This document shows positions 60,373 through 61,704 of a stretch of DNA of 64,000 bases, one piece after another. Positions within the stretch are counted from its first letter, which is position 1; each line of letters begins with the position of its first letter. Made by a program: the position numbers and the translations under genes. The notes below the pieces were generated by a model. The model made no database searches. It saw only the letters and a list, made by a program, of their open reading frames with translations, and was not told the DNA's origin. Source of the stretch: Candidatus Aenigmatarchaeota archaeon (GTDB lineage Archaea; Aenigmatarchaeota; Aenigmatarchaeia; GW2011-AR5; JACRAC01); NCBI GenBank assembly GCA_016187395.1, contig JACPJV010000033.1:2151-66150 (forward strand), read 5' to 3'.

Positions 60373-60702
60373 CTAGGCAATCCGTGCGCCTCCCAGGATC
60401 TCTGGCAGCTTCTTCGTGAACTCCGATTTTGACAAAACAAAAAAGCACCCCTCCCTTTTGGCTGCTTCCCTGAGCTCAACGTCAGCGTGAGACAGGTATC
60501 CGACTATTTTTGCTTCGGGATTTTTCTCTCTCAATCTGAATACAGCTTCAGAACCAAACTTATTCAAATCAAGCAGAATCAAGTCTGCGTCCTTGATCCC
60601 GAAAATATTGTTGAAAAACTGCACGTCCTTGCCAGTTTGTCTGGCTATTTCAGCTATCCTGCCTTTGAAAAATAAGTCAGATACGAGCGCGGCTGTCCTC
60701 AT
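60373..60702 (-). CDS. receiver-like (CheY-fold-like) small protein
   Basis: DLILLDLNK and KIVGYLSH resemble a response-regulator receiver domain, but the N-terminal acidic pair is not evident. Confidence 0.45.
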   Translation of the reverse strand: MRTAALVSDLFFKGRIAEIARQTGKDVQFFNNIFGIKDADLILLDLNKFGSEAVFRLREKNPEAKIVGYLSHADVELREAAKREGCFFVLSKSEFTKKLPEILGGARIA

Positions 60703-60731
60703 GAATATTTTTGTATCTAAAAAGATTAAAA

Positions 60732-61003
60732 TGCCCCCGCCGAGAGTTTCGCCAATCCCATTTCATATTACCGGAGCGAAGCTCCGAAAGTTCTTTTGGG
60801 GTTCTCCAAGACCTTTTCTTTCAAGAAAAGGGATTGGATTCGAACTCGGGTTTCAAGGTATCTGCAATTCAAATACCGCAACCTTGTGTCCTATTTGCTT
60901 CCAAGCGAAGTCTTCCGCGCGCAGCTGGTTCGCTGCGGTCGGCGTGTATTATTTCTCCCTTGCTCACGCACGCTGCGCTTGGACCAGGCTAGACTACGAG
61001 GGC
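60732..61003 (-). tRNA. tRNA-Arg (anticodon GCG) with three introns: 60895-60983 (D-loop), 60860-60875 (37/38), 60746-60838 (59/60)
   Basis: Acceptor GCCCTCG/CGGGGGC, U8, A14, G18G19, D-stem GTCT/GGAC, anticodon arm CAAGG-TTGCGG.A-CCTTG, T-arm CCGAG-TTCGAAT-CTCGG, discriminator A. Each intron sits in a helix-bulge-helix-bulge-helix fold. The spliced product is 74 nt. Confidence 0.85.
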
Positions 61004-61026
61004 TTTGTAGAAATATGGGAGCAATC

Positions 61027-61034
61027 ATTTAAAG
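61027..61034 (-). promoter_or_regulatory. TATA-like box for tRNA-Arg
   Basis: The minus strand reads tttaaat about 25-31 nt upstream of the tRNA 5' end. Confidence 0.45.
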
Positions 61035-61085
61035 TAATGCGAGAAAAGCATACGTTTTTAAGCTCTCGCCCCAAAACTAAGAGCC

Positions 61086-61241
61086 ATGAGATGCTCATCT
61101 TGCAATCTTGAATTAGAAACAGAGGAAAGGTGGACCCGGTTCAAGTGCCCTGCCTGCGGAGAAAATGAAATAAAACGCTGCGACACCTGCAGGAAGCGAG
61201 GCATCCTTTACAGGTGCGAGTGCGGCTTTGAAGGGCCGTAA
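61086..61241 (+). CDS. 51-aa double zinc-ribbon protein (the type often found next to EF-1beta)
   Basis: Hand translation gives MRCSSCNLELETEERWTRFKCPACGENEIKRCDTCRKRGILYRCECGFEGP. Confidence 0.7.
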   Translation: MRCSSCNLELETEERWTRFKCPACGENEIKRCDTCRKRGILYRCECGFEGP

Positions 61242-61301
61242 AAAATCCCGCTCTTTAGCGGAGTTTTTTCACAAAGTTAGAAAGGTCTTAGTGTATCCAC
61301 T

Positions 61302-61354
61302 GAAAAGTTCTTTTGGGGTTCACCAAGACCTTTTCTTTCAAGAAAAGGGATTGG
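61302..61354 (+). repeat. copy of the tRNA-Arg T-loop-intron segment, forming the EF-1beta leader
   Basis: gaaaagttcttttggggttcaccaagaccttttctttcaagaaaagggattgg compared with 60786-60837 shows one indel and one substitution. It contains the 9-bp palindrome ccttttctt-tca-agaaaagg. Confidence 0.8.
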
Positions 61355-61355
61355 T

Positions 61356-61601
61356 ATGGGAAAAGTTGCCATTACTTTCAAGGTAATGCCCGAATCTGCT
61401 GATGTGGATATAGAGGAAATAAAGGGTAAGATAGAACAGTTAGGTGCGAAGCAGATTCACACAGAAGAAATAGCCTTCGGGCTAAAAGCCCTGAAAGTCC
61501 TGTTTGTTGTCGAAGACAAGGAAGGACAGGATATGGAAGGCAGGCTCTCTTCAATAAGTGGAGTAGGGTCAATAGAAACAGAGGCAATAACCAGATTGTG
61601 A
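61356..61601 (+). CDS. translation elongation factor aEF-1 beta
   Basis: MGKVAITFKVMPESADVDIEEIKGKI...IAFGLKALKVLFVVEDKEG has typical aEF-1beta size and sequence. Confidence 0.9.
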   Translation: MGKVAITFKVMPESADVDIEEIKGKIEQLGAKQIHTEEIAFGLKALKVLFVVEDKEGQDMEGRLSSISGVGSIETEAITRL

Positions 61602-61608
61602 ATTTCAT

Positions 61609-61704
61609 TATAGCAAACCAACTTAATAAACGGCATGGCAAAGTTGGTTTGCTATGTGGGAAAGCACAAATGACATGTTCCGTTTCATTTGTGGTTTCAC
61701 TATA
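61609..61704 (-). mobile_element. TA-bracketed double-hairpin (MITE-like) element, copy 4
   Basis: The reverse complement is nearly identical to 53017-53112. It starts 8 nt after the EF-1beta stop. Confidence 0.65.

Follow-up and report, generated by a model that had tools for sequence, protein, structure and literature searches.

We analysed a stretch of 64,000 nt (the window) from contig JACPJV010000033.1 of a metagenome-assembled genome (MAG) of a Candidatus Aenigmatarchaeota archaeon (assembly GCA_016187395.1; 0.98 Mb, 42 contigs, 79.6% complete). At the locus of interest, a tRNA-Arg(GCG) gene with introns is followed, on the other strand, by a small zinc-finger gene and by the gene for EF-1beta. 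A short sequence occurs twice here, once within a tRNA intron and once just ahead of the EF-1beta start codon, and both occurrences contain a conserved element that we call the module. The features, with their positions in the window, are:

60732..61003, minus strand: tRNA-Arg(GCG) gene with three introns; ARAGORN folds a 74-nt tRNA once the introns, which are of the bulge-helix-bulge (BHB) type, are taken out
60746..60838, minus strand: T-loop intron (position 59/60, 93 nt), an intron-type element with a strict hBHBh' motif, laid out as module, second hairpin, GTAATAT and closing GGGATTGG
60791..60837, minus strand: module of ~47 nt in the tRNA (purine-tail) orientation, CCAATCCC-TTTTCTT-loop-AAGAAAA-GGTCTTGG-AGAACCCC-AAAAGAA, identified by an nhmmer family of ~24 loci, alignment and pair counts
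60859..60874, minus strand: canonical 37/38 intron of the tRNA, 16 nt
60895..60983, minus strand: D-loop intron of the tRNA, 89 nt, without the module; a relaxed BHB candidate, GCCT[GG|T]...AAGC[AA|A], whose removal the cloverleaf requires
61086..61241, plus strand: small zinc-finger (Zn-ribbon) protein gene, HVO_2753-like, 51 aa (Pfam PF07754, E = 2e-14)
61248..61269, plus strand: terminator-like hairpin CCGCTCTTTAGCGG and then T6, directly 3' of the Zn-ribbon stop (promoter/terminator scan)
61277..61303, plus strand: left arm of the leader-type element (AGAAAGGTCTTAGTG...); it is a partial copy in inverted orientation and could base-pair with 61316-61333
61304..61354, plus strand: leader copy of the module in the pyrimidine-strand orientation, with TTCTTTT at 61308-61314, a linker, and a hairpin at 61323-61354
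61356..61601, plus strand: EF-1beta gene, 81 aa (Pfam EF1_GNE, E = 3e-16)

A repeat search of the window identified 60787-60837 and 61304-61354 as a 51-nt direct repeat, ungapped and 50/51 (98%) identical, whose sole mismatch is T/A at 60804/61321. The 51-mer, with up to 3 mismatches allowed, matches at exactly two sites in the 64-kb window and at none in 100 shuffles (0 expected by chance). This bears out a preliminary description of the locus, which had also counted one substitution and one indel; the T/A difference is real, while the indel is required only to extend the match 2-3 nt leftward. As that description had it, the first copy is in the T-loop intron and the second stops at 61354, 1 nt ahead of the EF-1beta ATG (61356), and the two homologous segments lie in genes that are transcribed in opposite senses. 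Each copy has unique flanks. These flanks, the one-base difference, and the recurrence of the module on at least 14 contigs of this MAG and in ~25 other MAGs exclude an assembly duplication.

We propose, with a probability of about 0.6, that the 51-mer is the core of a conserved module of ~48 nt, and that this module defines a dispersed, proliferating repeat family of the Aenigmatarchaeota (DPANN archaea) with a tRNA-intron form and a leader form. The link that a conserved and dispersed family makes between tRNA introns and gene leaders is well supported, and the family is likely to be proliferating. Its contexts, the orientation rule, the BHB motif, the covariation, and the filled and empty orthologous sites are all seen in the sequences. 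How it moves, whether it folds as a triple helix and what it does in leaders are matters that we can only infer. In the tRNA orientation (form 1), the module is the first part of BHB introns at the D-, anticodon- or T-loop, or follows the 3' end of the tRNA. In such introns the terminal CCAATCCC would pair with GGGATTGG at the 3' end, giving the inner helix of the splice motif, so the splicing endonuclease EndA could remove the module and insertions in tRNA genes would survive. The T-loop intron of tRNA-Arg(GCG) is a copy of this form. In the opposite orientation (form 2), the module ends 1-3 nt before a start codon and is usually preceded by a conserved arm and an AATAATA box.

The module in tRNA genes and gene leaders

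The T-loop intron has the motif CCGAG-TTCG-[AA|T]-CCAATCCC ... GGGATTGG-CGAA-[AC|T]-CTCGG, which our BHB scan scored as a strict hBHBh' structure (central helix 4/4, inner helix 8 bp, outer helix 5 bp, and two 3-nt bulges). With all three introns removed, ARAGORN recovers the 74-nt tRNA-Arg(gcg) cloverleaf. In the unspliced window, neither ARAGORN nor Rfam at its gathering threshold reports a tRNA or another RNA, and a relaxed Rfam scan of 60650-61450 gave chance-level matches only, so no Rfam family matches the module. The MAG also encodes EndA (PF01974 match of 92 bits at C2:5109-5387; C numbers are contigs of this MAG). Given the motif, the restored tRNA and the encoded endonuclease, 60746-60838 is predicted to be an archaeal tRNA intron of the BHB type that EndA splices. 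The intron has two alternative folds, one with the module hairpin and one with a terminal CCAAUCCC:GGGAUUGG helix.

We wrote the BHB finder, which uses combinatorial splicing, for this purpose. It resolved the tRNA in the window and several other tRNAs, but it is noisy for multi-intron genes, and many contexts were read by eye. Introns interrupt nearly all tRNA genes here. In intron mode, ARAGORN detects no more than 9 tRNAs across the MAG, each with introns, and the Rfam tRNA model has 19 matches, many of them under the cut-off or shorter than a full tRNA. One tRNA is apparently uninterrupted (C38:2444-2516).

As a BLAST query, the T-loop intron hits 14 places in the MAG, and a profile built from BLAST-level copies (nhmmer) finds ~24 loci. 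When these are read in the tRNA sense, ~17 of the 24 copies are inside tRNA genes, so other tRNA introns do carry the repeat. D-loop introns with the module are found in the genes for Lys-CUU, Ile-GAU, Thr-GGU, Thr-UGU and Val-CAC, among others; T-loop introns (59/60) in Arg-GCG, Glu-UUC, Trp-CCA and one more; and in the anticodon loop (37/38), the module is the 5' part of longer introns in Cys-GCA and Glu-UUC. Together, the module introns span Lys, Ile, Thr, Val, Cys, Glu, Trp, Arg and Asp genes at these three positions. That is, highly similar introns occur in different tRNAs and at different positions, as in the Thermoproteales. Like miniature inverted-repeat transposable elements (MITEs) and repetitive extragenic palindromes (REPs), the module is multi-copy (~24), and its intron-type copies have terminal inverted repeats (CCAATCCC/GGGATTGG).

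Some copies are unusual. In a class II tRNA gene (C24:6780-6921, minus strand), the intron is a tRNA-oriented module joined head-to-head with a reverse-oriented half module, and the reversed half supplies the closing GGGATTGG helix. A weak module-like hairpin closed by GAGCTCCTTTTC/GAAAAGGAGTTC (C29:20019-20081) lies in non-coding sequence that is rich in GC, looks structured and is no tRNA; possibly, the hairpin belongs to an intron of some other stable RNA.

The module is also found in related genomes. Exactly the 51-mer portion recurs, at 85-96% identity, in 18 of 41 relatives, and the EF-1beta proteins of the module-bearing relatives are only 41-55% identical to that of the window. An exact 22-mer occurs on 38 contigs from ~25 MAGs, most of which are labelled Candidatus Aenigmatarchaeota. 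Many genomes of the order are without the module. We considered a viral origin and rejected it, as the exact 22-mer has no match in the viral contigs of IMG/VR. Our literature search found no paper on the module.

Among 47 copies in other MAGs, whose contexts we read by eye, ~33 are at the extreme 5' end of tRNA introns, 5 lie directly after a tRNA 3' end, 7 are reversed and end 1-3 nt before an ATG, and 2 are elsewhere. The preliminary description had raised the possibility of a generic dispersed repeat with no link to introns; this is not what we see, since the family is strongly tied to tRNA introns. Orientation follows a strict rule: all of the ~50 tRNA-linked copies have one sense, and the ~30 copies next to an ATG have the opposite sense. 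The pattern AARGGGATTGG-N1-3-ATG has 33 matches in 16 of 70 genomes of the order (the reversed control has 1). About 8 of the 33 are the antisense of tRNA 3' ends, and the remainder are ahead of real open reading frames (ORFs).

The genes that follow leader copies are mostly translation genes. Those confirmed by Pfam are EF-1beta, EF-1alpha, aIF5A, the ribosomal proteins uS3, uS12, S4e, S6e, S17e, uL14 and uL15, a class I aminoacyl-tRNA synthetase, Rpo5, FEN1, an OB-fold protein, and PAC2, ArsR and AbrB-type proteins. Others (uL2, uL6, L40e, GlyRS and pilin-like proteins) were named by eye only. In a 97%-complete MAG (G014; G numbers are genomes), most copies are of the leader type.

An alignment of 21 leader copies shows a longer cassette: an A-rich stretch, AATAATA, ~32 nt that include GAAGACAAGGTCT, the module, 1-3 nt, and the ATG. 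We take AATAATA after an A-rich stretch to resemble an archaeal TATA box with its transcription factor B recognition element. Judging by this layout, the cassette looks like a promoter and 5'-leader unit placed before highly expressed genes. Small inserts are nested in the hairpin loop of several module copies. One of these is a second small repeat (~30-45 nt, for example CAAACTGACGTTCCTGCGGGAACGTCCATTCGC, with flanking GAATGCGAATGG) at C37:20139-20185, C31:12600-12650, C11:13560-13640 and C25:29190-29240; another (TCCTCAAAAGACAAAGTCTTTTGGGAATTCAGGAAAGC...) is common to three leader copies of one MAG from Lac Pavin.

We did not adopt three simpler accounts of these positions. We rejected the T-tract of the hairpin as the TATA box of a leaderless transcript, as its spacing to the ATG falls short by ~5 nt. 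GGGATTGG probably does not mimic a Shine-Dalgarno sequence: the 16S rRNA ends in GGATCACCTC, the regions ahead of ORFs show no enrichment of GGGAT, and the sequence used in relatives is GGTGAT. For the intron copies as antisense promoters or leaders of divergent upstream genes, the distance to an ORF is uninformative, because an ORF starts no more than 150 nt away at 49% of random sites too. The 3' end of the 16S rRNA is at C29:9869-9960, where a T-run comes after GGATCACCTC. Any given Shine-Dalgarno pentamer is found upstream of only ~6% of the long ORFs in the MAG, so many genes may be leaderless.

The leader copy before EF-1beta

The module is found before the EF-1beta ATG in three genomes: the MAG with the window, a Lac Pavin MAG, and G036. 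Pfam confirms EF-1beta in the first two, and in G036, GGGATTAGT abuts the ATG. The reverse layout reads GGGATTGGtATG at EF-1beta in the window and GGGATTGGttATG at aIF5A on contig C37. The HVO_2753-like zinc-finger gene is a conserved upstream partner of EF-1beta, and the spacer from its stop to the EF-1beta ATG is 114 nt in the window. In most relatives this spacer is 8-25 nt with a GGTGAT Shine-Dalgarno sequence, and there is no insert. Comparing orthologous loci, as the preliminary description had advised, thus shows an empty site in most relatives and the module in G036 and the Lac Pavin MAG. The spacers of the window (61242-61250) and of G039, which is without the module, both contain AAAAATCCC, and G039 has GGTGATTAGTT before the EF-1beta ATG where G036 has the module end GGGATTAGT. 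These matches could be microhomology or a remnant.

Over the 48 positions of the module, the best matches of this leader are the neighbouring intron and a copy at C28:960 (47/48 each), and then copies on C12 (46/48) and in the aIF5A leader (45/48). Within the MAG, the variant TTCACC is found only in the EF-1beta, aIF5A and C11 copies, none of which is in an intron; the intron copies have TTCTCC or TTCGCC. The left arm (61280-61294) aligns with the GAAGACAAGGTCT arm of the leader cassettes from other genomes. The RNA of the plus strand folds into the module hairpin, which ends 1 nt before the AUG (-18.8 kcal/mol, z = -2.4).

The preliminary description had also noticed a looser similarity further upstream, and had read 61244-61353 as a decayed homolog of the whole intron. 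Part of the similarity is real, in that 61280-61298 is an inverted partial copy; the aatccc and its hairpin (61245-61262) belong instead to the terminator-like hairpin with T6. With this hairpin there, and with no strict BHB motif around the leader in a plus-strand search, the homology to a whole intron finds no support. The best relaxed candidate (HBh', 61279-61340) has a central helix of 4/4 and an inner helix of 8 bp, and its outer helix is just 1 bp, so the leader copy (61277-61354) does not qualify as a BHB intron.

Most likely, then, going by its sequence and neighbours, the copy before EF-1beta would be a leader-type member of the family rather than a spliced intron or a private duplicate of the intron next to it. 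It may be a form-2 copy, minus the TATA part, that was inserted between the Zn-ribbon gene and EF-1beta. It would probably be kept in the mRNA as a structured leader that abuts the AUG, where it might affect the translation of EF-1beta or the stability of its mRNA. On the other side of the gene, directly 3' of EF-1beta, there is an inverted-repeat element (61596-61704 in the window, with arms at 61596-61624 and 61641-61669, plus 61660-61698).

Structure and covariation of the module

In the tRNA sense, the conserved unit is N-CCAATCCC-TTT(T)CTT-loop-AAG(A)AAA-GGTCTTGG-(A/T)GAACCCC-AAA(A)GAA (~47-48 nt), and beyond it the sequence varies. It consists of a 13-15-bp hairpin (CCAA..CC-TTTTCTT / AAGAAAA-GG..TTGG), a 14-16-nt linker, and a 7-nt tract that mirrors the purine arm. 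The 9-bp palindrome ccttttctt/aagaaaagg, which had been put forward as a possible protein- or DNA-level site, is the stem of this hairpin, and a structural hairpin with compensatory changes explains it better.

We aligned 48 distinct copies, which are related to each other. In this alignment 99.2% of the hairpin cells are paired, and 6 of the 13 pairs have changed on both sides, which no shuffle reached. Other leader copies have further variants of the outer helix (CAAA:TTTG, TAAA:TTTA and TACA:TGTA). The 3' tail covaries with the stem in mirror symmetry, and there are at least five types of stem, each with a matching tail:

5' arm TTTTCTT, 3' arm AAGAAAA, tail AAAAGAA
5' arm TTTCTT, 3' arm AAGAAA, tail AAAGAA
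5' arm TTTCTTT, 3' arm AAAGAAA, tail AAAGAAA
5' arm TTCTTTT, 3' arm AAAAGAA, tail AAGAAAA
5' arm TTTTT, 3' arm AAAAA, tail AAAAA

If the columns of the 5' arm and of the tail are compared in parallel register, 97.3% of cells are complementary, versus 76-78% when the columns are slid by one. Three of the four arm-tail positions have changed on both sides.

The parallel complement of the pyrimidine arm is the mirror of the purine arm, which is the rule for a third strand, so we infer that the module can form an intrastrand triplex. The third tract obeys the Hoogsteen (mirror) rule and covariation has kept it so. As the tail mirrors the purine arm, either strand could fold as an intrastrand triple helix, and the triplex rules are satisfied by both strands. 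On the plus strand of the window, the triples would be U.A-U with one C+.G-C, and TTCTTTT (61308-61314) would lie over the stem (61329-61348). With this orientation the module has a tandem GA/AG as its conserved 2x2 internal loop. A third strand of the purine-motif type is what the tRNA orientation would give.

Spread, alternatives and known systems

Presence and absence of the module can be compared at one site within a single genus. The uS3 site (after uL22) is empty in 8 of 11 genomes and holds a cassette in 3 of 11, each of a different subtype (L132 in G039, L126 in G045, and L136 in G046). All three sit at the base just ahead of the ATG of uS3, within the ribosomal protein operon, and the uS3 proteins of one filled and one empty genome are 94% identical. 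Three subtypes of cassette at one site suggest that start codons were targeted repeatedly.

Three tRNA-oriented copies that lie outside tRNA genes are flanked by direct repeats: 23 nt on C11 (19/23 identical), 21/21 on C13, and 18/20 on C20, where the repeat takes in the ATG of a gene. The two copies of the C20 repeat (C20:3360-3475; ATGTCGTGGGGGGACCAGAT and ATGTCTTGGGGCGACCAGAT) differ at two third-codon positions, and both differences are synonymous in the duplicated gene start. In another MAG, a copy after a tRNA (L052) has 17 nt of that tRNA's 3' end duplicated at its flanks. Judging from these sequences, one class might have spread by transposition with long staggered cuts and the other by recombination or gene conversion, or there could have been an RNA intermediate.

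Several points weigh against a proliferating family with a leader form and a triple helix. The putative target-site duplications are 17-23 nt at four copies, and neither the leader-type copies nor the filled uS3 sites show a convincing one; recombination or gene conversion is as possible a route of spread as transposition. A stable hairpin 1-3 nt before an AUG is expected to hinder initiation, which would be odd for highly expressed genes unless the RNA is processed. The leader copy in the window is only a partial cassette, as it has no TATA-like AATAATA box, although this fits its position inside a Zn-ribbon/EF-1beta operon. Our covariation counts include related copies, and a few subfamilies could give part of the signal, so there are at least five independent events rather than dozens. 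Finally, RNA is not expected to form stable triplexes of the purine motif, and a triplex thus leaves the conservation of the module in the intron orientation unexplained.

We weighed four other explanations. The module might act in trans: RNAs from tRNA processing (introns cut by EndA and trailers cut by RNase Z) would pair with the leaders of translation genes over ~48 nt, beginning from the 5' TTCTTTTGGGG tract of the leader, and would couple tRNA output to the synthesis of ribosomal proteins and translation factors. This would explain the strict rule of orientation (~50 tRNA-linked versus ~30 ATG-adjacent copies) and the dominance of translation functions among the genes. The module is always 1-3 nt from a processing site (the 5' splice site or the tRNA 3' end), so the RNA would have a defined end, and in several genomes the 37/38 introns of tRNA-Cys keep the module while the rest of the intron differs. 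There is a precedent in yeast, where freed tRNA introns repress mRNAs through base pairing (PMC13079951). However, sequences of common origin are bound to be complementary here, which makes complementarity no argument for pairing. The degenerate copies, and those flanked by repeats of 17-23 nt (of which one adjoins a tRNA 3' end), have the appearance of selfish spread, and many genomes of the order do not have the module at all. We consider this explanation unlikely, though worth keeping in mind. It is quite unlikely that the module is a DNA-level element, either H-DNA or a cruciform or the site of a regulator or recombinase just downstream of the transcription starts of highly expressed genes. 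Homopurine/homopyrimidine mirror repeats are the defining feature of H-DNA, the triplex rules hold on both strands, the module is found in both tRNA and translation genes, and multi-copy intrastrand triplex motifs are conserved in bacterial genomes and linked to genome instability (Holder et al. 2015, PMC4666352). But a folded single strand is indicated by the compensatory changes in CCAA/TTGG and in the stem, and by internal loops that are purine-purine in one orientation; the position in tRNA genes ranges from +20 to beyond +150; and a symmetric site would not require strictly opposite orientations to transcription in the two classes.

The preliminary description had favoured a one-off local event that placed a copy of part of the T-loop intron 517 nt further downstream, in the EF-1beta leader. 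In its favour, the copies are neighbours with 50/51 identity, and the intron ties with C28:960 as the best match of the leader in the genome. On the other hand, we estimate that chance alone would give ~0.3 pairs this close among ~24 copies in ~1 Mb. The left arm of the leader is of the kind typical of leader-type cassettes in other genomes, the leader shares TTCACC with the aIF5A and C11 copies and with no intron copy, and the same junction of module and ATG is seen before EF-1beta in G036 and the Lac Pavin MAG and before dozens of other genes. The leader belongs to a separate class with its own left arm, and one-off copying is very improbable. Least of all do we expect the leader copy to be a BHB-type intron, or a processing site for EndA, in the Zn-ribbon/EF-1beta mRNA, with its removal restoring a short spacer. 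The relaxed HBh' candidate (61279-61340) would be its basis, and AATCCC (61245-61250) could pair with GGGATT (61347-61352). Yet proper bulges and an outer helix are not combined in any candidate, excision of the best one would put AGAAAAGGGATTGGT, and not a spacer of native type, ahead of the ATG, AATCCC belongs to the terminator-like hairpin with T6, and leader copies elsewhere have no upstream partner for GGGATTGG.

A more ambitious version of our proposal, which we regard as unlikely, is an RNA system with two parts: mobile leader cassettes capped by a triplex, and complementary RNAs from tRNA processing. The cassette would bury the 5' end of mRNAs for the translation machinery in a U.A-U/C+.G-C triple helix, the mirror image of the clamp that elements for nuclear expression (ENEs) put on 3' ends. 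As tRNAs are processed, the exact complement of the leader would arise in bulk as a by-product, out of the introns that EndA excises and the trailers that RNase Z removes, and it would pair with the third strand of the leader, open the triplex, and so tune the stability or the translation of the mRNA. The module would also be the vehicle that creates new tRNA introns. If this were true, then the supply of tRNA would be coupled to the synthesis of ribosomes and translation factors.

As far as our literature search reached, the mirror-symmetric three-way covariation, which suggests a triple helix, is new, and so is the strong preference of copies in the reverse orientation for the base just ahead of a translation gene's start codon. 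If the cassettes are functional, they would be a new kind of archaeal 5' leader, and they could link tRNA processing to the expression of the translation apparatus in organisms with minimal genomes.

Parts of this family resemble several known systems. In yeast, free tRNA introns act on mRNAs, as was shown experimentally, through short complementarity to targets in coding sequences (PMC13079951). The likeness is that an excised tRNA intron has extended complementarity to mRNAs; the differences are that here the complementarity is ~48 nt long, is to 5' leaders and stems from a shared repeat, and that an action on mRNAs is hypothetical. The intrastrand triplex motifs of prokaryotes (PMC4666352) are similar in having three consecutive tracts that follow hairpin and Hoogsteen (mirror) rules, and in being conserved and multi-copy. 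Unlike them, the module is A/T-rich rather than G/C-rich and is archaeal, and we propose its triplex from covariation. RNA is known to form major-groove triple helices, such as those of the MALAT1 and PAN elements for nuclear expression, and the known stabilizing RNA triplexes are U.A-U with one C+.G-C. In those elements the triplex is a clamp on a 3' A-tail, whereas the third strand of the module is 5' of the hairpin, at the presumed 5' end of an mRNA.

Like REP/REPIN and MITE-type repeats and the introners of eukaryotes, the module is short, non-coding, structured and multi-copy, and it has subfamilies, nested insertions, and differences in presence and absence. Introners are transposon-like elements that create introns upon insertion. 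In contrast to these elements, target duplications are seen at only four copies of the module and are unusually long, and its choice of sites is very specific (loops and 3' ends of tRNAs, and the base that precedes an ATG). Splicing of the module would also use a protein endonuclease, EndA, and not the spliceosome.

The closest described phenomenon is the transposed tRNA introns of the Thermoproteales. BHB motifs bound all of these, which implies that introns were gained in DNA, though by a mechanism not yet known (Fujishima et al. 2010, summarised in PMC4090602). In both cases, similar introns with BHB boundaries are found in different tRNAs. Here, the organisms are of a DPANN phylum, only the 48-nt 5' module is in common while the rest of the intron varies, and the module is conserved across families. 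It is also found at tRNA 3' flanks, reversed before start codons, and in intergenic regions with 17-23-nt direct repeats. The gain of archaeal tRNA introns is an acknowledged open question, and a 2026 preprint on Asgard archaea likewise leaves open how introns arrived. In the Aenigmatarchaeota, a single family can be traced through four states, namely introns at several positions of tRNAs, trailers of tRNAs, insertions between genes that have long duplications on their flanks, and leaders of genes. These four states, with filled and empty orthologous sites within one genus, make the process of intron gain directly testable.

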